Made by a program: the position numbers and the translations under genes. DNA of 64,000 nt from the IMG/VR virus record IMGVR_UViG_3300025154_000082, positions 4,296 to 68,295 of that record; one strand, written 5' to 3'. Each line of letters starts with the position of its first letter. Position 1 is the stretch's first letter. Positions 1-52,362 of the stretch are shown here, piece after piece. The stretch is from a virus. Below the pieces are notes generated by a model. It saw nothing but the letters and a program-made list of their open reading frames with translations, was not told where the DNA came from and did not search any database.

Positions 1-165
1 CATTAGATTGTTTATGAATCCCACAGAAAGCATTTGAGGATATTGGATAACTTTAATTAATTTAGCAAAATATTTTTCATTGTTTTCAGTGACAGAAATA
101 TACTTCCTAAATTCTTTAATTTGGATATTGCTTGAAGTTGAACATTCAGATTGAGCATAGTCCAT
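1..165 (-). CDS. partial ORF (N-terminal ~55 codons, continues beyond window start)
   Basis: minus-strand ATG at 163-165 opens a frame that remains open to position 1; truncated by window edge so absent from ORF track. Confidence 0.2.
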   Translation of the reverse strand, partial: MDYAQSECSTSSNIQIKEFRKYISVTENNEKYFAKLIKVIQYPQMLSVGFINNLM

Positions 166-310
166 TCCCGAATTACGCAGGTTTTCACAAATATCAGAAT
201 TGGTAATTAGATAATAACTTGATTCGTTTATTTGTGTATCTTTGTTTAAATAATTTAAATCAGTTTTACAAATTATCCTTGATGAATCATTTAGAGAATT
301 TAGCAAATAT

Positions 311-658
311 TTAAACTTGGATCTGAGTAATATTTGATCTTCTTTTGTTGCTAAAAGATAGTTTGCTTTTGGGTAAAGTTGATATTGAAACATTTTGTTT
401 TGTCATTCCTTTCCACTTAAATTTAAAGAAAGATACTACTCCTTGGTCTATATCTGTTTTCGTAAGAATTGCTGTAGGAATACCAATATTTGGTAATATA
501 AATAATTTTAAATAAATAGGTAAAGTTGTATTAAAAACCGATAATCCAAGTATAACCCCACCTATTAAATAAATAGTTTGTTTCCCTGTAAGTCCATAAA
601 ATATTTCATCCTTCATTTCAATAATTTGATTTGTGTCGAACATTTCAGTATTTAACAT
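311..658 (-). CDS. small membrane protein (two predicted TM helices; VirB3/PrgI-like position)
   Basis: 115 aa, hydrophobic core GGVILGLSVF and PIYLKLFILPNIGIPTAIL; immediately downstream of polytopic membrane protein. Confidence 0.3.
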   Translation of the reverse strand: MLNTEMFDTNQIIEMKDEIFYGLTGKQTIYLIGGVILGLSVFNTTLPIYLKLFILPNIGIPTAILTKTDIDQGVVSFFKFKWKGMTKQNVSISTLPKSKLSFSNKRRSNITQIQV

Positions 659-662
659 TAAA

Positions 663-1658
663 TTACCTCCTTCTACTCGCTCCTCTTCTTGAAGACATCA
701 TACCTCCCATTCTACCAAATCCACTATATCTAATAAGTTTTCTAGGGCTTAATCCATATTTTATCTCTCTAAACATAGCAACTGGATTCGGAGCTTGGTG
801 TCCATAACTAATCCATTGTTGAACATATGAAGGTGCTTTTAGCATAAATGATCCTGCCGATATACAAAGCATAATATGATAAAGTCCTCCGTGATTTGAT
901 TTTGATATTGAAGACTCAAATCCTAACCAAATCACCATAATAATCGCATGGATAATTGGAGCAATTAAGTTATCTAATAATTCATCAATCCATACCTGTC
1001 TCATATTTTGATGTTTGGGAAATAAACATAGATAGAAAAATATAGGTGCTGTAGCAACTAGAAACATAATAGAAATCATTCTCATGAAATAAAACCATAT
1101 TAAATTGACTAATATCATTGCAAAAATTAAAGTGAATATAATTAGACCTAAACCATACTGTGGAGTTAAAGCTCTGACCATTTGTGCTTCTGAACCGCCT
1201 AGAGATAGAATAACAATGGTAAATTTGTTTGTTGCATCTATTATCATTGGAAGTGCAATTATTGCAATATTTACAATGACCATTGATTGAGCTATCTTCA
1301 CAATATATTCTGTACTCTGATATTTACTACTTTTATTCATAATTTGCATAATTCCAAAATATACAATTCCTGCTATTGAGAATGTCATTATGATCTTTAA
1401 GAAGAAATAGTATAAAGATAATATTGTAGGATTTTCTGCCAATACATTAGGCGTGTGAAGAAATAATTGTGTAAAATTTTGAACTAGAGAATCAGTAATA
1501 AAATGTTCTAATCTTCCATTTACTGTAGAAATATCTTGAGGTGTAGGTGCATTAAATAAAGCATCATTAACATTTTGAACTGTTTCTAGGGATGGAGGTG
1601 TGATAAAAAATTTAATTATAGCATCTCCTGCTTCTCCAACAGTGAGCAATGGAATCAT
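663..1658 (-). CDS. polytopic integral membrane protein, VirB6/TrbL-like (T4SS channel component candidate)
   Basis: 331 aa with at least 6 long hydrophobic segments and basic C-terminal tail RRGASRRR; size/topology typical of VirB6/TcpH/PrgH-like proteins. Confidence 0.4.
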   Translation of the reverse strand: MIPLLTVGEAGDAIIKFFITPPSLETVQNVNDALFNAPTPQDISTVNGRLEHFITDSLVQNFTQLFLHTPNVLAENPTILSLYYFFLKIIMTFSIAGIVYFGIMQIMNKSSKYQSTEYIVKIAQSMVIVNIAIIALPMIIDATNKFTIVILSLGGSEAQMVRALTPQYGLGLIIFTLIFAMILVNLIWFYFMRMISIMFLVATAPIFFYLCLFPKHQNMRQVWIDELLDNLIAPIIHAIIMVIWLGFESSISKSNHGGLYHIMLCISAGSFMLKAPSYVQQWISYGHQAPNPVAMFREIKYGLSPRKLIRYSGFGRMGGMMSSRRGASRRR

Positions 1659-1688
1659 CCCCTTTATGAAGTTATAATAATTTTAATC

Positions 1689-1940
1689 TTAAAATTTTGG
1701 CATTGTTGGAAATACTCCTTTAAGTATTGTCCAGACAATCTTCACTACCCAAGGCCCAACAATTATAGTTATACATCCACGGATTACCGATTCCTTAAGC
1801 TCTTTGGATTGAGCTTTCCAATTTCCATTTCCAATGACATCCATGACACCAGCCCAGACTATCATGATCATAGCTAAACCAATTCCTAGTCCAGATAATA
1901 ATAAACAAATTTTTGTTGACCACTGGTTAAATTCTTCCAT
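1689..1940 (-). CDS. small two-TM membrane protein (VirB2/TrbC pilin-like or holin-like)
   Basis: 83 aa; TM1 ICLLLSGLGIGLAMIMIVWAGVM, charged loop KAQSKELKES, TM2 ITIIVGPWVVKIVWTIL. Confidence 0.35.
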   Translation of the reverse strand: MEEFNQWSTKICLLLSGLGIGLAMIMIVWAGVMDVIGNGNWKAQSKELKESVIRGCITIIVGPWVVKIVWTILKGVFPTMPKF

Positions 1941-2087
1941 GATAAAAACCTCCTAGAAATTTTAATTTTTCCATGCCTCTTTACTAAGAAGACCTAGATT
2001 TTAAAATCTGAATCCCTTTATTCATGCGGTCTGTAGGGTTCAGGGTGTATTAATGGCAATATAGGTGGTTAATATAGGGTTCTTGTC

Positions 2088-2115
2088 TTGATTTTTACAA
2101 ACATTCATGTATAAT
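2088..2115 (+). promoter_or_regulatory. sigma-A type promoter (TTGATT-16-TATAAT) for small plus-strand gene
   Basis: -35 ttgatt at 2088-2093, -10 tataat at 2110-2115; followed by RBS aaggag at 2156-2161. Confidence 0.4.
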
Positions 2116-2172
2116 CGACATTATTTTGGTTAATAATATGGTCAACGAAATAAATTAAGGAGTGTGAATTTA

Positions 2173-2274
2173 ATGTTTTTACTGCCAATGTTTGTTGTAG
2201 GAGTAGGTTTGGTGGGTTATTCAGCATATGAATTAGTTAATACAGTGCAACAATTAAGCAAACTTATTCAATAA
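2173..2274 (+). CDS. 33-aa hydrophobic peptide (MFLLPMFVVGVGLVGYSAYELVNTVQQLSKLIQ)
   Basis: ATG 2173 with RBS 11 nt upstream, own promoter and immediately followed by intrinsic terminator; one predicted TM helix. Confidence 0.35.
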   Translation: MFLLPMFVVGVGLVGYSAYELVNTVQQLSKLIQ

Positions 2275-2299
2275 TAAAATTCATATGCTATAATTCAAT

Positions 2300-2325
2300 C
2301 CCCTCATTTGAGGGGTTTATTTTTT
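2300..2325 (+). terminator. rho-independent terminator (cccctc-attt-gagggg + T-run)
   Basis: 6-bp GC stem 2300-2305/2310-2315 followed by tttatttttt; overlaps stop codon of convergent minus-strand gene 2317..2514. Confidence 0.5.
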
Positions 2326-2514
2326 AGCAAAATGCTTGATACTTTTGACAATTGATTCTTTAGACCAATATGCTCCAAAACCAAACATTAAAACTCCTAA
2401 TGCGCCCATTGTCCATCCTAAAACCCAGTATGAAGGAGTAAGAAAAATCTCACCAAATTCTAATAGTGAAAAACTTCCAACTAAAAACATAAGAGCTTTT
2501 GTATCTTTTTTCAT
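2317..2514 (-). CDS. small two-TM membrane protein, holin-like
   Basis: 65 aa, two hydrophobic helices and lysine-rich C-terminus KSIKHFAKK; directly downstream of secreted M23 peptidase. Confidence 0.3.
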   Translation of the reverse strand: MKKDTKALMFLVGSFSLLEFGEIFLTPSYWVLGWTMGALGVLMFGFGAYWSKESIVKSIKHFAKK

Positions 2515-2530
2515 AATAAGTCCTCCTTTT

Positions 2531-3112
2531 CTATTTGCTTTTAGCAGGTAAATAATTAATTGGATTTAATGAATTAGTTCCATTATTAGTACGAATTTCA
2601 AAATGTACATGTGGGCCTCTGGATAGTAATCCGGTATTTCCAGACAAAGCAATTACATCATTTTGATTTACTTTATCTCCAACGTTGACTAATAATTGAT
2701 TATTATGTGCATACACAGTCTGTTTTCCATCAGAATGATTGATATACACAACATTTCCAATCATTTCATTAAATTCTGCTTTAATTACTATGCCAAAATT
2801 AGAGCAATAAACTTTACTATTTTCCACTACTGCAATATCAATTCCATAATGAAATCCATTTAATGAAGACTCTCTTGGGCCATAAGGACTTGAGATTATT
2901 CCATCTACTGGATAAATATAATTAGAGGAAGAAGAAGTAAGCAATATATAAGTTTTATTAATGACAATGTTTAAGATACTTTTTGCTTCCTCTGTGGTCA
3001 ACTCTCCTTTAGCTGAGACAGGATGAGGTATTGACAATAAAGTTAATAATAAAAGTGAAAATAATAGTTTTTTGCTTGGCTTGGGAATTAATTTTCCTTT
3101 TGTTTTTCTCAT
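2531..3112 (-). CDS. secreted M23-family metallopeptidase (LytM-type peptidoglycan hydrolase)
   Basis: signal peptide MRKTKGKLIPKPSKKLLFSLLLLTLLSIPHPVSA; M23 signature HYGIDIA ... NHSDG ... YAH ... GNTG...GPHVHFE. Confidence 0.75.
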   Translation of the reverse strand: MRKTKGKLIPKPSKKLLFSLLLLTLLSIPHPVSAKGELTTEEAKSILNIVINKTYILLTSSSSNYIYPVDGIISSPYGPRESSLNGFHYGIDIAVVENSKVYCSNFGIVIKAEFNEMIGNVVYINHSDGKQTVYAHNNQLLVNVGDKVNQNDVIALSGNTGLLSRGPHVHFEIRTNNGTNSLNPINYLPAKSK

Positions 3113-4251: not shown

Positions 4252-4540
4252 TCATTTCAACTCCTTTGGATGTAATGTAGAATGAATTGGCATTCCTCTC
4301 TTTCCACCCTAGTTTAACCATTCCAAGCATTAAAAGATGATTTAGATTATGTCTGACTCTCAAATGATTGATGTCAATTGCAAGAGATATATTCCTTACA
4401 GTTCTGCTGTTCATTGGATCAGTAAGATTTTCTGAAAATAAATGATGTAGAATATCTATCTCTAATTTTGATAGCATTTTAATTAGTTCACCTCGCTTTG
4501 TTTTAATAATGTGTGATAATGTATCTGATTGTTCAACCAT
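4235..4540 (-). CDS. winged-helix DNA-binding transcriptional regulator (MarR/ArsR-like)
   Basis: 101 aa; helix-turn-helix-like segment LKMLSKLEIDILHHLFSENLTDPMNSRTVRNISLAIDINHLRVRHNLNHLLMLGMV followed by wing. Confidence 0.4.
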   Translation of the reverse strand: MVEQSDTLSHIIKTKRGELIKMLSKLEIDILHHLFSENLTDPMNSRTVRNISLAIDINHLRVRHNLNHLLMLGMVKLGWKERNANSFYITSKGVEMIETKT

Positions 4541-4699
4541 GCTTCATACTCCATCTTATTGATTGATAATTGTCCATTATGTTAGTCAATTTATGGGAAA
4601 TCTTTGGACTTAAATGAAGTTGATTAATCAGACCTATACAATTACCCAAACATTATTTTATATGCTTTAATTTGATTTATTTTGTAAATTAATTTAAGA

Positions 4700-4736
4700 T
4701 TAATAAAAGAAAAGCCCTGATTTCTCAGGACTTAAT
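4700..4736 (-). terminator. intrinsic terminator after partition operon
   Basis: minus-strand RNA GUCCUGA-GAAA-UCAGGGC (one G-U pair) followed by UUUUCUUUUAUU, immediately after stop of 4739..4993. Confidence 0.4.
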
Positions 4737-4738
4737 AC

Positions 4739-4993
4739 TTAATCGTCAAACATATTAAAATTGATTTCTTTTACTGGTTTTGTTTTAGATCGCTCTTCCA
4801 TTCTAATTTCATCTTTTTTAACAAATACATCTATATAGATTTCCTCTTCATCCTCTAACATTACCTTATCTTCACCTTTAAAAAAATAATCATACAAAGC
4901 TCTTCTAATTACTTTGCTTCTCCTATTCTTAGGGATTGCATCAAGAAATGGTTTTAAGATTCTGTCGTCTCTAAAGTTTCTAATTTCCCCCAT
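4739..4993 (-). CDS. small basic DNA-binding adaptor candidate (ParR-like position)
   Basis: 84 aa, overlaps end of ParM-like gene; N-terminal RRSKVIRRALYDYF segment compatible with ribbon-helix-helix; acidic C-terminus. Confidence 0.3.
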   Translation of the reverse strand: MGEIRNFRDDRILKPFLDAIPKNRRSKVIRRALYDYFFKGEDKVMLEDEEEIYIDVFVKKDEIRMEERSKTKPVKEINFNMFDD

Positions 4994-5922
4994 GATAGAT
5001 TCTTCACCAACTTTTCTGCCCCTCTTACATTTGAGAATTGACCTTTATGAAGTATTTTTTGAGGCCAATTAAGAAAATGATATATAGCAGACCCTCCTCC
5101 TCCAGTAACGATTATCTTGTCAATTTTCTTTAAATCATAAAAGGTTGATACATCTGCCTTGATTAATGTTGCAATGTCTGGGTAAAAATTCGCCAATGAG
5201 TCATAACCATCATATAAATCTACTTCATATATTTTTCTATCAGCACGTTTATAGATTTGCCACATTCCATTATTTGTAGTTTTGCAAAGTTCTCTAACTA
5301 TTTCACCTCTGAGTAAATAAATTAGATTTACAGTACCCATTCCTACATCAACGATTAAAGTAACATTAGGAATTTCTTCTTTAGTTTTGCCCTCATCATC
5401 AAGAAAATAATCCATTGACGCACAATATCCCTGTGGGAGACTTTTTATAAGTGTCGGTTTAAAGTTATGAATATGCTCAATATCCCCAATTTTATAATTA
5501 ATATCCATATCATGAGAAAACATATCAATAATTGATTTTTTTTCACTAAAATAAGATTCAAATGGAAAAAGAAATACTACTTTGTCTTCATTTTTATAGT
5601 TACATAAGGTATATTTAGTAAGAATTTTGAATGTTGATTGCTCTGTTTTAATTCCTTCAAGTGAATAATCTTGAGCATACCCATGTAAAATTGCATCTTC
5701 TCCAATGTAATGATTATCAATAACCCACATTTTCTTTTCAGTAAAAGAATCTTGATATTTCCCTATGACAGAAAGAATCTTTAATTCCCTGCCTTTTGAA
5801 TTTAACGCCTTCACATATGAATTACCACAGTCCAAAAACAGCATATTTACTCCTCCTTTGATTTGTAATACAATTGTAAGACATTGTCTTACAATTGTAT
5901 TACAAATTTTATGAAAATACAA
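4954..5922 (-). CDS. actin-like ATPase of the ParM/Alp family (plasmid segregation)
   Basis: actin-fold motifs: phosphate-1 LDCGNSYVKA, phosphate-2 IVDVGMGTVNL, adenosine IVTGGGGSAIY. Confidence 0.6.
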   Translation of the reverse strand: MYFHKICNTIVRQCLTIVLQIKGGVNMLFLDCGNSYVKALNSKGRELKILSVIGKYQDSFTEKKMWVIDNHYIGEDAILHGYAQDYSLEGIKTEQSTFKILTKYTLCNYKNEDKVVFLFPFESYFSEKKSIIDMFSHDMDINYKIGDIEHIHNFKPTLIKSLPQGYCASMDYFLDDEGKTKEEIPNVTLIVDVGMGTVNLIYLLRGEIVRELCKTTNNGMWQIYKRADRKIYEVDLYDGYDSLANFYPDIATLIKADVSTFYDLKKIDKIIVTGGGGSAIYHFLNWPQKILHKGQFSNVRGAEKLVKNLSWGKLETLETTES

Positions 5923-5928
5923 GAGGTT

Positions 5929-7434
5929 TTATGATTCTAATAAATTATCATAATATTTCCAACCAAGAGGTACTCCTGTTTCGGGATGCAATCCGCAATA
6001 CTTTGCTTTATTTCTGCAACATAGAGATATACCTGAATGAAAAATATTATATTTTAATCCAGCCTCTGTTTGAGAATTAAATATTTCTCCAGTAGTAGTG
6101 CATATTATTTTACTAAAAACTCTTTTGCTTTTATATCCACTTTTTCTAGTCTCTTCTTTTGGGTCGTAATCACACCAACCTAGCTCAGTTCCCTGCTTAA
6201 GATATTTTATAACCGTTGATCTACATTTTTTTATTATACTTGATATTTTTAATGTGTTTTTAATATCATTCCACATATTACAAATAGTTTTTACAATGCT
6301 TTTACAAGCATATTCATAACATTTTAACCAGTCTATATCACTTTCTGAAAAATTTAAAAGTTTTGGCAAATCTGATTTCATAATACTGTTTTTAATCCAA
6401 TTCATATTTGAATATCGACAATCTAAGACTATGTAATTATTAATATTATTGTTTCTAGCTAATTGTTCTTTTACTTTGTCATTCTCTTGGACTTCATTTA
6501 ATCTCATTCTCCATGTACTATTAGTTTCTTCATAATGTTGAATTCCTTGACACTCACAAATAATTTCATCAATTTTATTTATGTAAAAGTCATATTTATA
6601 ATTATCGCACCATTTGAAAGTTTTTTCAGATAATTGTGTATTAAAATCATTGCCTAATAATTGTTCAAATACATTAAATAAAAATTTCTCAGGAAAACTT
6701 ATACCGTCCCCACAACATTCACATCCAAATCCTTTTTTCCACAATTTATCCAAACTCTTTTGTTTCTCATGTCCACAATCTGGACATTTCATTGGAATTT
6801 TTTTATTTGAACCAACTGAATATTTATAAGCATCTTCTTTATTAACTAAAAATTTAATAAGTTCTTGATGCGTAACTGAAATTGTATTACACATAATACA
6901 ATCAAGACTTATGGTAGATCCTTTTTTTATTGTTGTATAAGTAAAACGAGCAATACTTTTTAATTCGGATTTATGTTCTGGATGATCTAAGCATTTAAAC
7001 CAGTAGCCCTTATTATTAAAACCTACCGAACCATAACTTACATATTTAGGACTTATTATATTGCCATTTTCGTCAATATTTAAACTATAATCCCAACGTG
7101 ATAATATCCAATCAGCCAATTCTTTAGAGAGATGGGTATAGCACCACTCATAAAAAGAAATATAATTTTTGTGTCCAGTTTGAGAACATTTATGACAATA
7201 ATATCTTCCATCTTCTTTTACATATTTCTTGTAATTAAGCCATTTCATAGGTTTTAAATATTCTTTACATCCATCACATTGAACGTCAACTATAGCACTA
7301 GATGCATGTGTTAAATCTTCTACTTTTACTTTAAATTCCTCTCCAAGTTTAGTAAAGGCAAATCCTTTATCTATGTACCACTTTTTACTACTAAAATGCC
7401 ACTTCATTATTACCTCTTTAGTTATTAATCCCAC
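5929..7434 (-). CDS. zinc-ribbon-repeat / DUF559(Vsr-like) endonuclease-family protein with C-terminal homing-endonuclease-type HTH
   Basis: repeated W-D-x-x-N ... YWFKC..H / CxxC zinc-ribbon modules; core DFYINKIDEIICECQGIQH (DUF559/Vsr-like PD-(D/E)xK pattern); C-terminus GEIFNSQTEAGLKYNIFHSGISLCCRNKAK..GWKY resembles NUMOD-like HTH tails of phage HNH/GIY homing endonucleases; paralog of 52374..53654. Confidence 0.5.
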   Translation of the reverse strand: MGLITKEVIMKWHFSSKKWYIDKGFAFTKLGEEFKVKVEDLTHASSAIVDVQCDGCKEYLKPMKWLNYKKYVKEDGRYYCHKCSQTGHKNYISFYEWCYTHLSKELADWILSRWDYSLNIDENGNIISPKYVSYGSVGFNNKGYWFKCLDHPEHKSELKSIARFTYTTIKKGSTISLDCIMCNTISVTHQELIKFLVNKEDAYKYSVGSNKKIPMKCPDCGHEKQKSLDKLWKKGFGCECCGDGISFPEKFLFNVFEQLLGNDFNTQLSEKTFKWCDNYKYDFYINKIDEIICECQGIQHYEETNSTWRMRLNEVQENDKVKEQLARNNNINNYIVLDCRYSNMNWIKNSIMKSDLPKLLNFSESDIDWLKCYEYACKSIVKTICNMWNDIKNTLKISSIIKKCRSTVIKYLKQGTELGWCDYDPKEETRKSGYKSKRVFSKIICTTTGEIFNSQTEAGLKYNIFHSGISLCCRNKAKYCGLHPETGVPLGWKYYDNLLES

Positions 7435-7483
7435 AATCTAATCCTCCTCTTTCTATAAATTATTATATTTCTCCCTACTTAAT

Positions 7484-7512
7484 ATTATAGCATAAATAGT
7501 AAATCATGTCAA
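7484..7512 (-). promoter_or_regulatory. consensus sigma-A promoter (TTGACA-17-TATAAT) for partition operon
   Basis: minus-strand TTGACA at 7507-7512, 17-nt spacer, TATAAT at 7484-7489; RBS aggagg at 7443-7451 precedes start 7434. Confidence 0.55.
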
Positions 7513-7689
7513 CATATATTTATTTTATAATTTAATAATTTTCTCTATCCCTTTCAGTGTTGTCCGGCCCAAACACTTATCAACATGTGTATAAAATTTT
7601 AGAAACTTATACACAGCCTTGTCGATTTGTAGTATAATGTATTAACATGTCCAACCCATATTAATGTTAATTTTTAGCAAAAGAATAAT

Positions 7690-7762
7690 AGCAAAAACTC
7701 CTTGAAGTGCTAGTTTGGTCGCGAACACTTCAAGGAGCCACAGCAGAGGTTGTTTTCGTTTG
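7690..7762 (-). ncRNA. candidate ~70-nt antisense countertranscript (ctRNA) in rep leader
   Basis: minus-strand promoter at 7770-7798; perfect 12-bp stem 7698-7709/7726-7737 (ctccttgaagtg / cacttcaaggag) with 16-nt loop; on minus strand hairpin is followed by UUUUUGCUAUUAUUCUUUU. Confidence 0.4.
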
Positions 7763-7769
7763 TATTTTT

Positions 7770-7798
7770 ATTATAACAAAAAGAAAACCTTCTGTCTA
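7770..7798 (-). promoter_or_regulatory. promoter for antisense RNA (TAGACA-17-TATAAT)
   Basis: minus-strand -35 TAGACA at 7793-7798, 17-nt spacer, -10 TATAAT at 7770-7775. Confidence 0.4.
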
Positions 7799-7842
7799 GT
7801 GTGTTTTTGTTGTTGGCAAAACATGGAGAGAAGGTTTTTATT

Positions 7843-8772
7843 ATGAATATGATTAGAGATCCAAAGAAGTTAAGAAGAGTTCCAATCAAAGAAGAATTAG
7901 TTGAAATTACAGGTGATTACATTAAGGCAGTTATTTTGCAACAATTTATTTACTGGTCAGAAAGAACCAAAGATTATGACCAATTTGTTTTAGAAGAAAA
8001 GTTTCAGGCCGAAAGGTGTGGATATGAATACAAGGCAGAATTGAAAAACGGATGGATATTTAAGAGTTCTGAACAACTATCAGAAGAAACTATGCTTAGA
8101 TTAAAACATACCGCAATGCGTACACATATTAAGGTATTAGTGGATAAGGGTTTTCTATCTGAGAGAACTAATCCTCTTGATAAACGGGATAGAACCATAC
8201 AATATCGTGTGAACATTTTAGCAATACAACTTGATCTACTAGAACATAACTATGTCTTAGATGGATATTCTAGTCCAATTAATTTTGAAACTCTTATGGA
8301 AGTTATCCACAAGAAAAAGCAATCTCGGAATGCGGAAATGCAAACATCATTAAATGGAAATGCTTCATCAGAATGTGAGATTGCACAGCCGGAAAACAAT
8401 AATGGCATAGAATATGGGGTTGAAGACATAATTGCATTCTCGGAAAACGGAAATGCATCTCCGCAAATATGCAATGCAACTAGCGAAAACATGCAAGCAT
8501 TACCAGAGACTACTTACAGAGATATATATCTTATTGATATTAATCGCGTGTGGGAAGAGGTTGTGGATAACTTGAGAAAGAAATTGTCTCCTGCTTCTCT
8601 GTCTGCTTGGATATTACCCATCATACCAGAAATACAGGAGACAAAGTTAATACTTAATTGTTCAAGTCAATTTGCTGTGGATTGGATAGAGGGAAAATAT
8701 CTTAGTATGATTGTTAATTGTTTGCCTGAAAATAGTGGAATTAAGGATGTTGTTGTATGTGAAAGTTCTTAA
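7843..8772 (+). CDS. RepA_N-like plasmid/phage replication initiator (winged-helix N-terminus)
   Basis: RBS ggagagaagg before ATG 7843 (ORF track starts upstream at 7801); N-terminal IKAVILQQFIYWSERT ... GWIFKSSEQLSEETMLRLKHTAMRTHIKVLVDKGFLSERT ... IQYRVNI resembles RepA_N wHTH; one of few plus-strand genes; ori-like repeats lie within its central region. Confidence 0.5.
   Translation: MNMIRDPKKLRRVPIKEELVEITGDYIKAVILQQFIYWSERTKDYDQFVLEEKFQAERCGYEYKAELKNGWIFKSSEQLSEETMLRLKHTAMRTHIKVLVDKGFLSERTNPLDKRDRTIQYRVNILAIQLDLLEHNYVLDGYSSPINFETLMEVIHKKKQSRNAEMQTSLNGNASSECEIAQPENNNGIEYGVEDIIAFSENGNASPQICNATSENMQALPETTYRDIYLIDINRVWEEVVDNLRKKLSPASLSAWILPIIPEIQETKLILNCSSQFAVDWIEGKYLSMIVNCLPENSGIKDVVVCESS
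8303..8571. other. putative origin of replication inside rep gene (DnaA boxes + iteron-like direct repeats + AT-rich tract)
   Basis: perfect DnaA box ttatccaca at 8303-8311 and inverted perfect box tgtggataa at 8562-8570; 20-bp direct repeat tctcggaatgcggaaatgca (8323-8342) / tctcggaaaacggaaatgca (8438-8457) in different reading frames plus ggaaatgc at 8356-8363; AT tract gatatatatcttattgatattaat 8521-8544. Confidence 0.4.
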
Positions 8773-15206: not shown

Positions 15207-16520
15207 ATTTTAACCTCCTATAATAAAATCTCATACGGACTCACTTGAACTTCACACGAATTAATTAGTGTGATTCTTAATTCATTGACCAGACTAACGC
15301 CCAATCTCCTTAAGCTAACCCTGTAGTTCCTACAGTTTTTATTAATTATGCTATTAACTTCAATCCTTCATTTCTAATATTAATAGCAGCATTTATGTCT
15401 CTATTATGACTACTGCCACATTCTGGGCATTTCCATTCCCTAACACTTAAATCTAAATCAACATATTTCCATCCACAAACATGACAAAGTTTACTACTAG
15501 CAAAATATCTATCCACAACAGAAATTTCTCTACCATACCAAATTGCTTTATAATTCAACATTGTAGTAAAACTATACCATGAAGCATCTGATATACTTTT
15601 CGCTAATTTATGATTCTTCTTCATTCCTTCAATATTAAGATCCTCTAGGCAAATAACTTGATTTTCATTGATAAGTCTAGTTGATAATTTTTGAAGAAAG
15701 TCCTTCCTAGTATTAGTAATTTTCTCATGAAGTCTAGCCACTTTAATTCTTGCCTTGTTTCTATTTTTACTACCCTTTTTCTTCTTAGATAGTTTTCTTT
15801 GAAGTTTTACTAATTTATCTTCATATTTACGATAATATTTTGGATTATCAATAATTTCACATTCAGATGTAATAGCAAAATCTTTAATTCCCAAATCAAT
15901 ACCAATATTTATTTCTGATTTAGGTAATTTAATAGGCTCTGGCACTTCGCAAAGAATAGAGATAAAATATTTACCACTAGGAACCTGAGATATTGTTACA
16001 TTTTTAATTATTCCAATTACTTCTCTTGATTTAGCAAATTTAACTAAACCAAGTTTAGGAAGTTTAATTCTATTGCTTTCGATTCTAATATTATTATTTG
16101 TAAAAGTAGTACGATAAGACTTTCTATTATCTTTTTTAGATTTGAATTTTGGAAAACCTTGATTATTATTACCTTTCTTAATTTCTCTAAAGAAATTCTG
16201 ATAAGCTAAGTCTAAGTTTTTAAGAGTTTGTTGGAGAGATATACTATCAATTTCTTTAAGTCATTCAAATTCTTTTTTAAGTTGAGGTAGGAGAATAGCA
16301 CATTGATTATATGTTAAAGTTTGATGATTTTCTTTATACATCTCGATCCTTTTATCTAGAAAGTAATTATAGATGAATCTATTTGAACCTAAATGTTTAT
16401 TGATTAAAATTGTTTGCTCTTTGTTTGGGTATAGTCTGAATTTGAATGTTTTAAGCAATTGATACTCACCTCCAATATTTATTTATTATATCAAATTTTT
16501 AACTGATTTGTTAACAATTT
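15207..16520 (-). mobile_element. degenerate IS200/IS605-family TnpB-only element (IS1341-like)
   Basis: tnpB fragments in several frames; 3' tail 15230-15345 conserved with tail of intact copy at 47380-47503. Confidence 0.5.
15346..16458 (-). pseudogene. tnpB: tnpB pseudogene (multiple frameshifts)
   Basis: N-terminal 65-aa piece 16261..16458 and C-terminal RuvC-III/zinc-ribbon piece 15346..15945 (CHVCGWK...CPECGSSHNRDINAAINI) match full-length 47504..48637; middle third broken. Confidence 0.55.
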
Positions 16521-20139: not shown

Positions 20140-21319
20140 TTAAGCAACTTTAAATACTTTAGCATTCTTCAAATTTACACTTGCATTTTTATCACGATCA
20201 AGAATCATTCCACATTCTTTACAAATATATTCTCTATCTGAAAGTTTCAAATCCCTATCTATAGCACCACATTCACTACACATTTTACTTGAAGGAAAAT
20301 ATCTATCAACAATTCTTAACTCAATATTATTCCATGAACATTTATATGTTAATTGCCTTCTAAACTCATGAAAACTTTGTTCGGCGACTGCTTTAGATAA
20401 ATGCCTATTCTTCATCATCCCCTTGACGTTCAAGTCTTCGATCACTATATACTCTGGTTTGTTTTTCACCAGAATATTTGTGATTTGATGAGCATAATTT
20501 AAACGAATATTGGATAATTTTTGATAAATAGTTCTGATTTGAGCTTCTAACTTGATAATGTTTTTAGTTTTAATGAACTTCTTGCCATCTTTGTTCATTT
20601 CGTATTTTTTAGAGACTTGACGTTGAAGTCTTCTTAATTTTCTTTTAAGTTTCTTTACAGCAATAGTCTTATTGATATTTTTGAATGGTTTATCAATATT
20701 GCTGATAATTGCCAAATCCTTAACCCCTAAGTCAATTCCAATTCCTTCATTACTAACATTTGAATAATTATTATTGTCTACAATATCACACAGTACAGAA
20801 ACATAATACCTTCCTGCTTTCATTGAAACAGTACCACTTACTACTTTTGCATTGGTTGGAATATATCCTTTTTCTTTCAGTTCGACAAATCCTAAAGTTG
20901 GAATTTGTATTTTATGACGTTTAACAGTCCAGTCACCCTTCCCATTCTTAGGAAAATAGATATTAACATCTTGATTTTTCTTCTTCTTGAATCTAGGGAA
21001 TTTAGCTTGCCCCCTTAAAGAATCTTTTATATGCCATTTCTGCATTTACGATTGCTTTCTTTCTTGCCTTTGACCCACAATTATCAATCCATTTGAATTC
21101 ATCTAATACTTTTACTTCATTATTAATATATTTATCAAAATCATTGGCACTCATAAACGCTTGTTTCTTGTCAATCTTACCTTCTTTGTATAATTTATAA
21201 AGTTCTTGATTCTTAGTTAAATAAGAATTATAGAGGAAGCGACATATGCCAATTGATTGATGAATTTTATTAATATGAATTTCGGTTACTCTGAGTTCAG
21301 TTTTAAATCCTTTGAGCAT
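20140..21319 (-). pseudogene. tnpB: tnpB with single-base frameshift in poly-G tract
   Basis: ORFs 21002..21319 and 20140..21045 join as ...AYKRFFKG/QAKFPRFKKK if the GGGGG run (plus-strand ccccc 21011-21015) is GGGG; C-terminal zinc ribbon CSECGAI...CKECG. Confidence 0.55.
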
Positions 21320-22212: not shown

Positions 22213-25200
22213 TTAGCACTTGCTATATCCACAAACACAACTAATACAGCCACTAATATGTTTCAATTTAATACCACAGTCTGGACATTTATCTTTTTCA
22301 TCAGGTTCCAATTTTTCTTCATTTGATAATTTAGCAATAGGTTTAATACTTGCACTTAATTCTCCATTGATAAATTTTAGCATTTGTTTTGCTATAGAAT
22401 CCGCACAACTTTTCCCGATAGTCTTATCTTTTTTTCTAGCTTCTTTACTCACATCGCAACTTACGCTTTGAAGTTGATCAATTACTTGCAGAGGATCAAC
22501 ATTTGCTCTTAATAATAATGATACAGACCTACTCAACCCCTCTGTCATTCCGCGACAGCCTCCGGTACTTCCTGATTGAGAAAATATTTCACATAAATTA
22601 TTATCATTGTCATATACAAGTGTTAACCACATTGATCCACATCCAGTTTTAATTTTTAATCTTACTGAATTGGCAATATCTAATGTTTCATTAATCAAGA
22701 CATATTTTTTATCTTCATCAGTTGAAGAAATTTTACCTCCTGAAAGGGTTTGATTTTGTCTTGACCCATCTCTATAGACAGCTAATCCCTTAAGACCTTC
22801 TTTCCAAGCATAAATGTAAATATCATATATATCTTCTACACTAGCATTACTTGAAAAATTGACTGTTTTAGACAAGGATAAATCTACATGTTTTTGCAAA
22901 ACTGATACCATGTTCACATGTTCTTTAGGAGATAAATCATGAGCAGTAACAAAAATATTTCTAATTTCTTTAGGAATTTCTTTTATTCCTTGACATGAAC
23001 CATGATTATTTTCAATCTTACCCATTAGTTCTTCAGAATAAATCCCCAATTCTTTAAGTTTGTTTTCAAAGGTTGGATTATTTATAAAATAAATATTATT
23101 ATCATATGTCCTACGACTGTATGTAAGACCAAATTGTGGTTCGCAACCTCCAGAAACCCCTGCTAGAAATGATATTGTTCCATTGGGGGCAATTGAAAGC
23201 AATGAACTATTTCTAACTTTCAATCCCTGTTGTTGCCATTCACTACCTTCCCAAGCAGGGTAAACTCCTCGTTCTTCTGCTAAATCCATTGTAGCTTTTA
23301 AGGCATTGTCTTTCATTACTTTAATAATTCTCTCTGCGAAATCATAACCTTTTTGAGAATTATATTTAATTCCTAATACATACAGAGCATCTGCCAAACC
23401 CATCATTCCCATTCCAATGGGACGAATCGCTTCAGTCATTTGTTGAATTTTGGTTAGTGGCAATTTATTAATAGAAATCATATTATCAAACCATCTAATC
23501 GCTTTATATGACAAGATTTTTAATTTATCCCAATTAAATTTACCATCTTTGATACAAGCATATATATTAATACTACCTAAGTTACATGAAGAATTAGGTA
23601 TATTACTAAACTCATTGCAATTATGGACATAAGCTCCATTTGTAATTCCCATATGTAACTCATTTTCTGTAAAATCCCATACTTCTGCTTCATCTAGTTC
23701 AGAGATTAATATCACTGTTTCAAATTTTTCATCTAGTTTGTTTTGGTATTCTAGATAGCCATTTTTATAGTCTTGAATAAATCCAATTTCATCAAGGAAT
23801 TTTTTATAGGAATTTCTACTAATAACAATATGGGCAGATTGTTTACAAGTATAAGTCCCATTGCTAAATTCTATATCATTCTTTTTATTGTGATACCACA
23901 ATTTGCCTTTAACACCAAACATCAATAACATTTGTTGAACCTGTTTCAACATTTCTGTATTAATAGATACTAATTGAATCCTATGATGTTCTTTTAAATT
24001 GCATCCATTTGCACTAAAAAGTCCAATCAAAAAATCTTTCATTTCATTTTTAGGAAGAGTCATAATCCAATCTGGTATCATACGATCATCAATTTTATCA
24101 TAAAAAGCATTAGCGTATACAGTACCATAGGGGATATTTAAGACATGATTTATATCTTGCTTGTTAGAATCTTTTGCGTAAAACTTTTCTCCTAATTCTT
24201 TTTCTATTAAAATCATTGCTTCTTTATCTTTTTCTGGATTTGCAAAAATATATTTCATTCTATTAGATGCTTTATGGAATGTTGCATCTCCAAATTCAAA
24301 ACCTAAGACTTTATAATTTACATGAGGGTATAGATTATTTCCGATCCATTCTTTTTCTTTAATTTCAAAAGCAATATCTTTTCCAATTAAATCAATTGCT
24401 TTACACCAACTACCATCTTTAAGCATAAATTTATGATCTTCAGTAGTAGTGTACTCATAACCACTTTTAGTCATAATTTTATATACTTTTTTTATGCCTG
24501 TTTGCCATGTTTTCGTAGTTACATATTTTTCTCCATTCCACATCTTAGATTTAATATTGCTAATTTTCTCTAAACCATTCTCAGTTACCATATAAGTATC
24601 TTTGTGTAAACAAGGATTTGTAAAAATTAATGTACTTAAATGTTTATTGGGATTATCCGCATCCATGCGACTTTGATAATTCGCTCCGGGTTCTCCTGTC
24701 TCCCATGAACATCTTGCAATTTCTTCTAAAATTTCTTTTGCTTTTAATGTCTGATACACAATGGTTGGATAACCTTTATCTTTCCACCACTCTAAATCTC
24801 CATTCCATTCTTGATTATAAATTTCCTTATTCCATTGATAATCAGGAAACTCTAGATTCCAATCTTCATCATTTTCTACAGCCTTCATAAAATCATCAGT
24901 AAGAGAGATAGAAATATTCATTCTTTTTAATTCACTTGTATTGTCTTTACTATGTATAAAATCTAATAATTGAGGATGCCAACATTGAAGATTTATTTTT
25001 AAAGCGCCTTTTCTTGATGGATTAAATTTAGTCATATCATCAGCAGTTCTATCATATTTTCCCATAAATGTAGTAACTCCACCAGCATATCCTTTAGATG
25101 TATCTACTTTTGCTTTTGCAGGTCTTAATACACTAATATCTGTTCCTGCACCACCATTGCGTTGAAAAATCTTACTAAATTCTGCATCTAACAAACATAT

Positions 25201-25479
25201 GTCTTCTATATTATCTTTCGTTTGCAAAACAAAGCAAGATGATAATTGGCCTGGATTATCTTTATCTGCGTTTAACAAAACGGGTGTACTAAATATGAAT
25301 TCCAAATTAGACATTGCTTCATAAACTTCTTTTTTAATCTGTTGTTTTTTATCATTAGTTTCTACTTCTGCAATTGCAGTTGAAACCCTTTCACATAAAT
25401 CTTCCCAAGTTTTTTCGTTTTCTTTAAAGTATTGTTTTTCTTTAAGTAATTTCAATGCATCTTCTGAAATAGTTGTCAA
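22213..25479 (-). CDS. nrdJ: class II (adenosylcobalamin-type, monomeric) ribonucleotide reductase NrdJ, intein-containing
   Basis: after intein removal active site reads TNP-C-NEFSNIPNSSCNLGSINI (cf. NPCGE...CNL of class II RTPR); C-terminal zinc ribbon CPDCG...CISCVCG. Confidence 0.7.
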   Translation of the reverse strand: MTTISEDALKLLKEKQYFKENEKTWEDLCERVSTAIAEVETNDKKQQIKKEVYEAMSNLEFIFSTPVLLNADKDNPGQLSSCFVLQTKDNIEDICLLDAEFSKIFQRNGGAGTDISVLRPAKAKVDTSKGYAGGVTTFMGKYDRTADDMTKFNPSRKGALKINLQCWHPQLLDFIHSKDNTSELKRMNISISLTDDFMKAVENDEDWNLEFPDYQWNKEIYNQEWNGDLEWWKDKGYPTIVYQTLKAKEILEEIARCSWETGEPGANYQSRMDADNPNKHLSTLIFTNPCLHKDTYMVTENGLEKISNIKSKMWNGEKYVTTKTWQTGIKKVYKIMTKSGYEYTTTEDHKFMLKDGSWCKAIDLIGKDIAFEIKEKEWIGNNLYPHVNYKVLGFEFGDATFHKASNRMKYIFANPEKDKEAMILIEKELGEKFYAKDSNKQDINHVLNIPYGTVYANAFYDKIDDRMIPDWIMTLPKNEMKDFLIGLFSANGCNLKEHHRIQLVSINTEMLKQVQQMLLMFGVKGKLWYHNKKNDIEFSNGTYTCKQSAHIVISRNSYKKFLDEIGFIQDYKNGYLEYQNKLDEKFETVILISELDEAEVWDFTENELHMGITNGAYVHNCNEFSNIPNSSCNLGSINIYACIKDGKFNWDKLKILSYKAIRWFDNMISINKLPLTKIQQMTEAIRPIGMGMMGLADALYVLGIKYNSQKGYDFAERIIKVMKDNALKATMDLAEERGVYPAWEGSEWQQQGLKVRNSSLLSIAPNGTISFLAGVSGGCEPQFGLTYSRRTYDNNIYFINNPTFENKLKELGIYSEELMGKIENNHGSCQGIKEIPKEIRNIFVTAHDLSPKEHVNMVSVLQKHVDLSLSKTVNFSSNASVEDIYDIYIYAWKEGLKGLAVYRDGSRQNQTLSGGKISSTDEDKKYVLINETLDIANSVRLKIKTGCGSMWLTLVYDNDNNLCEIFSQSGSTGGCRGMTEGLSRSVSLLLRANVDPLQVIDQLQSVSCDVSKEARKKDKTIGKSCADSIAKQMLKFINGELSASIKPIAKLSNEEKLEPDEKDKCPDCGIKLKHISGCISCVCGYSKC
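23620..24612 (-). mobile_element. intein (331 aa) with LAGLIDADG homing endonuclease domain inserted at RNR active-site Cys
   Basis: begins with Cys (aa290) after TNP and ends ...VHN followed by Cys (aa621); LAGLIDADG blocks VLGFEFGDATF and FLIGLFSANGC. Confidence 0.65.
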
Positions 25480-26769: not shown

Positions 26770-26940
26770 TATTTTTGCTGAACATGAAGTTTGCTTTGTC
26801 TTGGGAATTGTATTCTTGAGAAGTGCATGTAGTCCATTTTCCGTCGATGCGATTGATGAGTTTTGTGGGGTTCATTTTTGTTTTTCACCTCCTCTCTATG
26901 TGAATATTATAGCATGTGGGGAATGTGGTGTCAAGGAATT

Positions 26941-47503: not shown

Positions 47504-48637
47504 TTAAGCACTTAATAATCTCATACCTTCATTCCTAATATTGATTGCTGCATTCACATCTCTATTATGATATGAATTACACTCTGGACAATCCCATTCT
47601 CTAATAGATAAATCTTTTACTTCAATGTTTTTATAACCACAAACATTACATAATTGAGAAGAAGGAAAAAATCTATCTACTTTCTGAACAATCCTATCAT
47701 GCCATAATGATTTATATTGTATTATTCTAACAAACTCACTCCAAGATACATCATTAATTGCTTTTGCCAATTTATGATTCTTAACCATATTTTTAACAGA
47801 CAAATCTTCTAAGCAAATTATTTGGTTTTCTTTAATAAGCCTAGTTGATAATTTTTGTAAAAAGTCATTTCTTTGATTAGTAATCTTTTCATGAACTATG
47901 TTGAGTTTAATTCTCGCTTTATTCCGATTTTTGCTACCTTTTTTCTTCTTAGAAAGTTTTCTTTGTGTCTTTTTTAATTTATCTTCAAGTTTAGATAAAT
48001 ATTTTGGATTGTCAATAATTTCACCTTCTGACGTAATCGCAAATTCTTTTAATCCTAAATCTATTCCCACAATGTTTTTATTGTTCTCGAATTCTACAAC
48101 ATCTACTTCAGTACAACATATAGATACAAAATATTTACCAGAACAAGTCTTAGTAATAGTGCAATTCAATATTCTCCCTTGTATTTCTCTTGATTTAGCA
48201 AATTTAACCAATCCAAGCTTAGGCAATTTAATTAAATTACCTTCAATTCTAATATTGTTGTTAGTTAAGGTAGTTCTATAACTACACTCATGATTATGTT
48301 TAGATTTAAACTTAGGAAATCCCTGATCTTTATTACCATTCTTAATTTCTCTAAAGAAATTTTGATATGCTCTGTCTAAATCTTTTAAAGAATTCTGTAA
48401 AGCAAATTTATCTATTTCCTTTAACCATTCTTTTTCTTTTTTAAGAATAGTTAAATCCGCAGAACAAGCATTATAATTCATAGATTTTTGTTCTGTTTTA
48501 TATAGTTCAATTCTTTTAGCTAAATAGTTATTATAAACAAATCTGCAAGATCCAAATGTTTTTGCTAATTGTATTTTCTGATTTTCATCAGGACATAATC
48601 TAAACTTAAATGCTTTTTCTGTCATAAATAAATTCAT
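47504..48637 (-). CDS. tnpB: TnpB (OrfB) RNA-guided nuclease-family transposon protein
   Basis: 377 aa; N-terminal MTEKAFKFRLCPDENQ, RuvC-like blocks, C-terminal zinc ribbon CNVCGYK...CPECNSYHNRDVNAAINI. Confidence 0.8.
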   Translation of the reverse strand: MNLFMTEKAFKFRLCPDENQKIQLAKTFGSCRFVYNNYLAKRIELYKTEQKSMNYNACSADLTILKKEKEWLKEIDKFALQNSLKDLDRAYQNFFREIKNGNKDQGFPKFKSKHNHECSYRTTLTNNNIRIEGNLIKLPKLGLVKFAKSREIQGRILNCTITKTCSGKYFVSICCTEVDVVEFENNKNIVGIDLGLKEFAITSEGEIIDNPKYLSKLEDKLKKTQRKLSKKKKGSKNRNKARIKLNIVHEKITNQRNDFLQKLSTRLIKENQIICLEDLSVKNMVKNHKLAKAINDVSWSEFVRIIQYKSLWHDRIVQKVDRFFPSSQLCNVCGYKNIEVKDLSIREWDCPECNSYHNRDVNAAINIRNEGMRLLSA

Positions 48638-52333: not shown

Positions 52334-52362
52334 ATTATACATTATTTGATTATATATGTCAA
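52334..52362 (-). promoter_or_regulatory. consensus sigma-A promoter (TTGACA-17-TATAAT) for lipoprotein gene
   Basis: minus-strand TTGACA 52357-52362, TATAAT 52334-52339, RBS aaggag ~9 nt before GTG. Confidence 0.5.

Follow-up and report, generated by a model that had tools for sequence, protein, structure and literature searches.

Organization of the locus

We analysed a 64-kb stretch of an AT-rich phage-like element (IMG/VR record IMGVR_UViG_3300025154_000082), which is referred to below as the window and in which a partition operon driven by a consensus promoter had been proposed at positions 4700–7512 (hereafter, the original prediction). The minus strand of this segment carries, in this order, a promoter, a 501-amino-acid (aa) open reading frame (ORF), a palindrome, an actin-like gene, an 84-aa ORF and a terminator, and a replication-initiator gene, rep, diverges from them (Table 1). 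As judged from comparison with related loci (designated by L and a number), these features are two adjoining independent cassettes without the structure of a single operon. One of them (approximately 4672–5941) is read here as a self-contained type II (ParMRC) partition unit beside the origin of a large AT-rich phage-like element. The other (5942–7535) is read as an insertion, between the origin region and the partition cassette, of a free-standing homing-endonuclease-like gene under a consensus promoter of its own. We estimate the probability of this reading as a whole at roughly 0.7.

Table 1. Features of the partition locus and its surroundings (window coordinates unless a related locus is named)
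Feature	Position	Strand	Remarks
Intrinsic terminator of parMR	4712..4733	−	Stem-loop and T-run
parR-like adaptor gene, 84 aa	4739..4993	−	Overlaps parM by 40 nt
parM, 296 aa	4954..5844	−	ATG at 5844; ribosome-binding site GGAGGAG
Candidate parC (centromere/operator), 47 bp	5861..5907		Perfect 23-1-23 palindrome; four TGTAnnACA units
parM promoter, TTGTAT-17-TACAAT	5894..5922	−	Read from the sequence; −10 element inside the first repeat unit
501-aa homing-endonuclease-like gene	5929..7434	−	GAGGAGG 8 nt 5' of the GTG start
Inserted nuclease cassette (promoter, 5' untranslated region, ORF), ~1.59 kb	5942..7535		Delimited by flanking homology breakpoints
Consensus sigma-70-type promoter, TTGACA-17-TATAAT with TG extension	7484..7512	−	Score 12/12; promoter of the nuclease gene
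Inverted pair of DnaA-box-like 9-mers, TTATACACA	7577..7615		rep–nuclease intergenic region
Conserved hairpin	7695-7739		L025 10802-10841; L027 11896-11935; L001 1985-2032; L026 2411-2452
rep (replication initiator)	7801..8772	+	Divergent; winged-helix Rep/O-like N-terminal part, C-terminal DnaA_N

The actin-fold ATPase

The product of parM exceeded the cut-off of the Pfam family ALP_N (29.3 versus 26.3 bits) and matched PHROG 691, ‘partition protein’, with an expectation value (E) of 2e-27. A sequence search of solved structures gave a weak match to pSK41 ParM (3js6, E 3e-4). An AlphaFold model built from 17 input sequences reached a predicted local distance difference test score (pLDDT) of 89.1 and a predicted template modelling score of 0.87. 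When this model was compared with the Protein Data Bank (PDB) by Foldseek, the top 28 matches were all ParM, Alp, AlfA, Ta0583 or CorM proteins of plasmid, phage or archaeal origin (E 4e-18 to 1e-10), the leading one being again pSK41 ParM 3js6 (E 3.7e-18, 21% identity), and MreB, MamK and actin ranked after these 28. The ParM fold supposed in the original prediction was thus recovered, and a non-actin outcome did not occur.

The residues invariant in the family include D5 and G7 of the phosphate-1 motif, D166, G168 and T171 of phosphate-2, and G248 and G249 of the adenosine motif, so that the motifs named in the original prediction stand. The length that it gave, 322 aa, does not: all of the ParM homologs (16/16) begin at the position of ATG 5844, and the 322-aa ORF, which starts at a TTG codon, extends through the palindrome. 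Judged by sequence, the 296-aa protein is a member of the Alp/ParM superfamily and no equivalog of NCBIfam PRK13917, ‘plasmid segregation protein ParM’, against which it scored 41.3 bits with a cut-off of 417.

Megablast of positions 4400–7800 against GenBank phages and PLSDB plasmids returned no match. The ParM/ParR pair is a separate sequence family, found so far in metagenomes only. The kind of system to which parMRC of the window belongs is well known (type II partition on a phage-plasmid-like carrier); the sequence family is new. In phage vB_BboS-125 (L024, 2423–5061), a ParM-like gene is accompanied by an overlapping 80-aa ribbon-helix-helix-like ORF (MGKLIPFRL...RSDVIRAALRCYL), one further ORF and an M23 metallo-endopeptidase gene, in the same local order.

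The ParR-like adaptor

Ten distinct metagenomic loci with ParM homologs (51–96% identity) were compared, and in all ten the adaptor gene lies downstream of parM with the 40-nt overlap. The original prediction of an 84-aa protein in the ParR position held in this respect; its description as basic is true of the first 40 residues alone. The whole protein is net acidic (isoelectric point (pI) 5.6; 19 K+R versus 20 D+E), and the charge is split between residues 1–40 (pI 10.6) and the remainder (pI 4.4).

Alignment of 19 adaptor homologs showed that residues 1–40 and a C-terminal E-x-x-F-x-M-F-x-D motif are nearly invariant, and that the linker between them varies in both length and sequence. In the ParR adaptors of R1 and pSK41, a flexible linker joins the DNA-binding domain to the tail that binds ParM, and the layout found here (conserved N-domain, variable acidic linker, conserved tail) matches theirs. 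The F-x-M-F-x-D tail is kept invariant across the variable linker solely in proteins encoded with this ParM; distant relatives of the N-domain, 62–68 aa in length, have no C-terminal tail.

An exhaustive profile search for the adaptor returned just 11 representative clusters among 1.8 billion proteins. In hhalign, the adaptor profile aligned with R1 ParR/StbB over residues 9–35 (27 columns) with a probability of 72% and an E of 3e-5, pairing adaptor LDaIPKxeRSkiiRrAL with LDSIPQGERSRLNRAAL of R1 ParR; the R1 query was checked and is 100% identical to the stbB annotated beside parM in more than 1000 plasmids. Among PDB profiles, a CopG ribbon-helix-helix protein matched the adaptor best (E 0.3), the alignment being in register from residue 1 onwards. 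In the monomer model, an extended N-terminus and helices at residues 13–19 and 22–38 (pLDDT ~75) are compatible with half of a ribbon-helix-helix dimer. On these alignments and this model, a ribbon-helix-helix/ParR relationship of the adaptor is likely. Searches of Pfam and NCBIfam gave nothing over cut-off, and the comparison with Plasmid_stab_B, the Pfam family of R1/NR1 ParR (StbB), suggests a remote relationship and not membership.

Repeat sites, promoter and terminator of parMR

The palindrome upstream of parM contains four 9-bp units, TGTAATACA, TGTAAGACA, TGTCTTACA and TGTATTACA, which start at 5904, 5893, 5883 and 5872, that is, 60, 49, 39 and 28 nt 5' of the parM ATG, at a spacing of 10–11 bp. 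Each unit is itself near-palindromic (TGTA-n-TACA), a form that would suit a symmetric adaptor dimer, and we regard the units as candidate binding sites. Nine of the ten loci carry two to four such units at the same 10–11 bp spacing, eight of them at the same position. In L019, two units are located 3' of the parR terminator instead of upstream of parM; because their linkage to the genes persists at a distance from the promoter, the units appear to be more than promoter elements. L011 carries two copies of a different unit, GTGTTAAACAA, and its adaptor has I4F/T6A in the predicted DNA-reading strand. The count of the 11-mer unit over the whole window was not above chance, and only its local clustering is informative.

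From this conservation, the palindrome is likely to be the centromere/operator. The original prediction had sought a centromere at 7440–7660 or 4541–4700; the conserved unit is absent from both regions, and the palindrome had been overlooked. Its assignment of the locus to the actin-type (type II) partition systems is borne out by the fold of the ATPase, the conserved downstream adaptor and the repeat sites. Folded as RNA, the palindrome would give a very stable 47-nt hairpin (−33 kcal/mol, z −7.2), but an RNA-structure reading was rejected, as in relatives the tandem units are conserved without the hairpin, and no U-run follows the hairpin. An Rfam search of 4400–8000 gave just sub-threshold microRNA hairpin matches to the palindrome, which we regard as spurious.

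The parM promoter is weaker than the nuclease promoter and lies under the threshold of the consensus scan. Relatives have it at the same position, as TTGCAT-17-TACAAT in L001 and L008 and as TTGCAA-17-TACAAT in L021. The intrinsic terminator, which had already been proposed to close the unit, is conserved: a stem AGTCCTGA-loop-TCAGGGCT with a T-run follows parR in all relatives. A terminator scan detected none between the nuclease gene and parM, leaving this one as the sole terminator of the three genes.

The inserted nuclease-like cassette

The 501-aa ORF and the perfect TTGACA-17-TATAAT promoter ahead of it were both recovered as originally described, and the ORF is preceded by a ribosome-binding site. 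Three perfect TTGACA-17-TATAAT sites were observed in the window, compared with 0.02 expected. In the 501-aa protein, three Cys4/Cys3His zinc modules, a Vsr/DUF559-like core and a C-terminal homing-endonuclease-type DNA-binding module were distinguished; residues invariant in the family define the zinc modules and, in the core, the pattern Y281-D282 ... E294-x-x-G297-x-x-H300 ... D319-x-x-K322. The protein matched PHROG 4538 at 9e-60 and the homing/HNH endonuclease PHROGs 9084, 559 and 12131 at 6e-18 to 3e-9. Its family has more than 1100 homologs, the nearest non-identical one at 60% identity; some carry NUMOD1 or I-HmuI-like domains, and several diverged copies occur on single contigs. The original label of a zinc-ribbon/DUF559-like protein was narrowly missed in its zinc part, the Pfam family DUF4379 (treble-clef zinc finger) scoring 23.9 bits, slightly under the cut-off of 24.5. 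The DUF559 part is a reasonable lead, and the protein is best called a putative nuclease.

In L009 and L011, nuclease homologs lie 3–4.7 kb from parM, preceded by a TTGACT-17-TATAAT promoter of their own and by a ribosome-binding site similar to that of the window gene. Because these homologs carry their own promoter at other genomic positions, the consensus promoter of the window is assigned to the nuclease cassette and not, as first proposed, to the partition unit, which has a conserved promoter/operator of its own. The nuclease gene is missing from L001–L008, L025 and L027, each of which shares one or the other flank (presence/absence polymorphism). A paralog of 426 aa is encoded at 52374–53654 of the window, its N-terminal 190 residues being 41% identical to the product of the nuclease gene. 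The second perfect promoter (52334–52362) is located 12 nt past the stop codon of this paralog, and the third at 26906–26934.

Boundaries of the cassettes and their exchange

DNA homology between the window and L008, in which ParM is 90% identical, covers exactly positions 5941..4672, and homology to L001 (ParM 96% identical) covers 5924..4700. On the rep side, the window has the rep gene and the origin-like region in common with L027 and L025 up to 7536 and 7594, respectively, where homology ends. The nuclease cassette is therefore delimited as 5942–7535, bracketed by two independent breakpoints. The DnaA-box 24-mer described below is separated from the repeat units by 95 bp in L001 versus 1668 bp in the window. 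The insertion of the nuclease gene, suspected in the original prediction, is confirmed by the flank breakpoints and the nuclease-free relatives, and on locus comparison both its insertion and its mobility appear well supported.

The parMRC block has changed neighbours among relatives. Upstream of it lie the nuclease gene in the window, a small Rep_O-like gene in L001–L004, a ParA-type ATPase with a 292-aa ORF in L008, and a large serine recombinase in L005–L007 and L019–L021. Conversely, the window rep backbone carries other cassettes in L025 (11049–13560) and L027 (12174–13704), where they replace the nuclease gene and parMR at the same locus. L027 has an actin-type gene of 325 aa (ALP_N 7.5e-10) with a partner ORF of 124 aa and TACAATTGTA-type repeats upstream of parM; L025 has an actin-type gene of 291 aa (ALP_N 4e-21) with an overlapping partner ORF of 87 aa and AATGTATACATT palindromes upstream of parM. 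The backbone DNA of L025 and L027 is 88–92% identical to that of the window, and Rep of L027 is 88% identical at the protein level, whereas BLASTP related the actin-type proteins of L027 and L025 to ParM of the window with E values of just 0.056 and 0.017. In L026 (1231–2320), the conserved hairpin listed in Table 1 is paired with yet another ParM, which again has its own small partner ORF and repeat set. Unrelated actin cassettes on a common Rep backbone are the strongest indirect argument for plasmid-type partition.

Tentatively, sibling huge phages or phage-plasmids of one groundwater community might hold at least three to four unalignable ParMRC cassettes at the same locus, exchanged under the pressure of partition incompatibility so that related prophage-plasmids can co-reside, and the inserted nuclease-like gene may promote this exchange; we consider this proposal possible rather than probable.

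In L008, the ParA-type ATPase (AAA_31, 1e-58) and the 292-aa ORF (5834–7509) are arranged head-to-head with parMR, placing type I and type II partition genes next to each other. The serine recombinase, 515–526 aa in length, stands next to parM in divergent or co-directional orientation (L005 4272–5831; L019 4315–5895; L021 4206–5753), and its possible functions are those of an integrase or of a multimer resolvase.

Replication initiator and origin-like region

Rep was recognized by Pfam DnaA_N (8e-12) and by replication-initiator PHROGs. The 24-mer of the DnaA-box region between rep and the nuclease gene is conserved in L001, there with a perfect TTATCCACA, and two perfect TTATCCACA boxes are located inside rep (8303–8311 and 8562–8570). 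Within 1 kb lie 4/7 of the DnaA-box-like 9-mers of the window, namely the inverted intergenic pair (7586–7615) and the two boxes in rep; their window-wide count is not above chance, so that just the local clustering is informative. The intergenic region, together with the boxes in rep, is probably an origin that uses host DnaA.

The hairpin beside rep has a 12-bp stem and a 16-nt loop (TTCGCGACCAAACTAG) that is 100% conserved; its stem varies from element to element through compensatory changes. L025 and L027 are identical to the window in flanks and stem but have the loop exactly reverse-complemented, which, from the alignment, makes this a small inversion that is polymorphic among near-identical genomes. 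On the minus strand of 7690–7798, a TAGACA-17-TATAAT site (11/12, with TG extension) is located ~30 nt ahead of the hairpin, and a T-run follows the hairpin. Such a promoter-like site and hairpin would yield a small RNA of ~75 nt antisense to the probable rep leader, an arrangement reminiscent of copy-number control by countertranscripts. In L026, promoter-like site and hairpin are similarly placed.

The carrying element

The sequence of the window, with a G+C content of 29%, is also found on contigs of 150–268 kb, with relatives listed in IMG/VR; the carriers are phage-like elements from groundwater metagenomes. The window encodes ribonucleotide reductase, Pol III alpha, a DnaB-like helicase, a RecD-like helicase, ThyX and dCMP deaminase, as well as SPbeta YorH and VG64-like proteins; its replication genes are of the SPbeta type. 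An intein with a LAGLIDADG domain is found in the large subunit of ribonucleotide reductase (22213–25479), and TnpB (IS605 OrfB/Cas12f-like) is encoded at least three times (15346–15945, 20140–21045 and 47504–48637), two of these genes being short. By its gene content, the element is rich in selfish genes.

On the 3' side of parMR (window 1–3112; L014 11882–20223), genes for an M23 peptidase, a DUF87/TraG-like P-loop ATPase, a Replic_Relax protein and DndB were found. PcfJ is encoded near 60743–61897 of the window, and an FtsK/SpoIIIE protein in L019. As a set, M23, TraG, Replic_Relax, DndB, PcfJ and FtsK resemble Gram-positive conjugation or plasmid-transfer modules, here in a phage-like genome. 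No integrase was found within the 64-kb window. Maintenance as a low-copy plasmid is plausible from the adjacent Rep gene and origin-like region, from the lack of an integrase in the window and from the ParA gene beside the cassette in L008.

Comparison with known systems

The partition cassette shares with R1 (parM-parR-parC, also stbAB) and pSK41 the order of centromere/promoter, actin-fold ATPase and small overlapping adaptor. Further likenesses are the best structural match of ParM to that of pSK41, the alignment of the adaptor N-domain with R1 ParR, and short, promoter-overlapping repeats spaced by one helical turn. R1 ParR requires at least two 11-bp repeats (PMC9426499). The cassette differs from both in the low identity to solved ParMs (12–21%), the short ParM of 296 aa, an adaptor that has no Pfam match over cut-off, and a carrier that is a phage-like element of at least 150 kb and not a conjugative resistance plasmid. 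It differs from R1 also in its sites, which number 2–4 instead of 10, are each palindromic and together form a perfect 47-bp palindrome.

Closer in kind are the ParM systems of plasmid-prophages, namely Bacillus phage vB_BtS_B83 and the large plasmidial Clostridioides difficile phages phiCD5763, phiCD2955 and phiCD211. Such temperate or plasmidial phages (phage-plasmids) have, next to a Rep gene, a ParM-like gene that is preceded by repeat sites and followed by the gene of a ribbon-helix-helix adaptor (PMC6669507). Set beside them, the element described here has Pol III alpha and DndB, and these four phages were not among the matches of a tblastn search with its ParM at E<=1e-3. In the pCW3-like plasmids of Clostridium perfringens, related replicons with similar Reps have different, non-cross-reacting ParMRC families (PMC9426499), and the unalignable ParMs on the shared Rep backbone of the window and L027 recall this situation. 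The carriers here differ in being phage-like, and their alternative cassettes differ in orientation, have extra genes and are known from sequence alone.

The nuclease cassette resembles free-standing homing endonuclease genes in its own promoter, intergenic position, presence/absence polymorphism, diverged paralogs in one genome and matches to homing-endonuclease PHROGs, and in a D...E-x-(Q/H)-G-x-x-H core in register with Vsr, although this alignment is weak. I-Bth0305I of phage 0305phi8-36 is reportedly a free-standing homing endonuclease of this Vsr/DUF559-like, EDxHD type from a large phage. The three N-terminal DUF4379-like zinc modules are unusual for such enzymes.

Proposed mechanism and alternative explanations

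A mechanism may be modelled on the biology of R1 and pSK41. Dimers of the 84-aa adaptor would bind the four TGTAnnACA sites, one helical turn apart, through the ribbon-helix-helix N-terminal domain. The bound adaptor would form a small segrosome and, with the −10 element and the transcription start both covered by the sites, would also repress the parM promoter and thus the parMR operon, as in R1. The conserved acidic/hydrophobic C-terminal tail (FxMFDD) would catch the ends of ATP-bound ParM filaments, and filaments growing between paired copies would push sister replicons apart and so secure the inheritance of the extrachromosomal (plasmid-prophage) copy. Transcription from the strong nuclease promoter probably continues into parMR, given the lack of a terminator between the nuclease gene and parM.

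Several observations weigh against the reading of the locus as a plasmid-type partition unit with an inserted nuclease gene. As for the adaptor, its monomer model is of low confidence (pLDDT 59.9), Foldseek found no structural match for this model, and Pfam PF10784 Plasmid_stab_B was reached only below threshold (E 0.039–0.12, in three family members). The number of sites is far below that of R1 parC, and the GC skew across the window tracks the transcribed strand, giving no origin signal. As for the nuclease, the core aligns with Escherichia coli Vsr (a query validated against 1cw0) in register over the whole catalytic core but with weak statistics (E 0.011, probability 4%); searches of Pfam, NCBIfam and PDB gave no nuclease match for the 501-aa protein, the PDB sequence/profile search returning zinc fingers only, as noise. 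With regard to lifestyle, no phage structural genes were found within the 64-kb window, and in the relatives with a serine recombinase beside parM, integration is possible. The closest ParM relatives among sequenced isolates are those of Bacillus phages (tblastn identity 28% for vB_BboS-125 and 23% for the 219-kb phage 0305phi8-36), and tblastn of ParM against PLSDB plasmids gave no match.

These last points lead to a real rival, a role like that of AlpAC-alpS of the Corynebacterium glutamicum prophage CGP3, in which a phage-encoded actin-like ATPase works together with specific sites and an adaptor that binds DNA (PMC4446434, PMC5539076). Actin-like systems of phages can also serve in lytic replication (PMC4446434), and in an integrated prophage the viral DNA is replicated efficiently only with AlpC (PMC4446434, PMC5539076). 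The ParM system of the window would then position or transport replicating phage DNA in the lytic cycle and would not partition a plasmid-prophage at division. This fits the occurrence of cultured ParM relatives in phages only, the replisome encoded by the element itself, and the serine recombinase beside parM in relatives, by which a plasmid state would not be obligatory. It also fits the annotation of vB_BboS-125 gp17, which cites a ‘plasmid segregation protein’ of CampHawk, an SPO1-like virulent phage.

The genomic context points the other way. The cassette directly adjoins Rep and an origin-like region and, in L008, a ParA-type ATPase, and the 64-kb window is free of an integrase. CGP3 is integrated, and its AlpC acts in viral DNA replication and transport. 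Near-identical Rep backbones with unrelated actin cassettes are expected from the incompatibility of co-resident plasmids (PMC9426499) and not obviously from a lytic function. No sequence relationship between this system and AlpAC-alpS was detected. We consider a lytic role of this kind unlikely, and infer a phage-plasmid lifestyle as the best reading.

It is far less probable that the 84-aa protein is a mere ribbon-helix-helix autorepressor and the palindrome a mere operator, with the ATPase serving a role unrelated to segregation, such as in the host cytoskeleton or cell shape. The overlap of the repeat units with the promoter, their small number (2–4) and the existence of tailless N-domain relatives would agree with this, the contact between tail and ParM being predicted only. 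However, the invariant tail is limited to adaptors paired with this ParM, as expected of a ParM-binding peptide, the sites of L019 are separated from the promoter, being located 3' of the operon, and the structural neighbours of ParM are segregation ParMs. The original scheme of a single partition operon transcribed from the consensus promoter, with the centromere at 7440–7660 or 4541–4700 and the nuclease gene as an internal passenger, accounts for the common strand of the three genes, their sole terminator and the likely read-through, but is largely refuted by locus comparison and very improbable, as that promoter travels with nuclease homologs to other genomic positions, nuclease-free relatives keep promoter and repeat units directly 5' of parM, and the proposed centromere regions are without the conserved unit, 7577–7615 holding instead the DnaA-box-like sites common to L001.

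Implications

The preferred reading of two adjoining cassettes, one for type II partition and one for a mobile nuclease-like gene, adds a compact, previously unannotated ParM/ParR/centromere family to the known diversity of these systems. With a well-defined palindromic site of just 2–4 units, the family may offer a convenient minimal type II system for biochemistry. For annotation, the locus carries the lesson that the strongest promoter of a region may belong to an inserted selfish gene and not to the operon downstream of it. For the carriers, our results suggest that uncultivated large phage-like elements of groundwater are kept like low-copy plasmids, and the exchange of unrelated actin-type cassettes between elements with a conserved Rep backbone hints at a shaping influence of partition incompatibility like that in clostridial plasmids.

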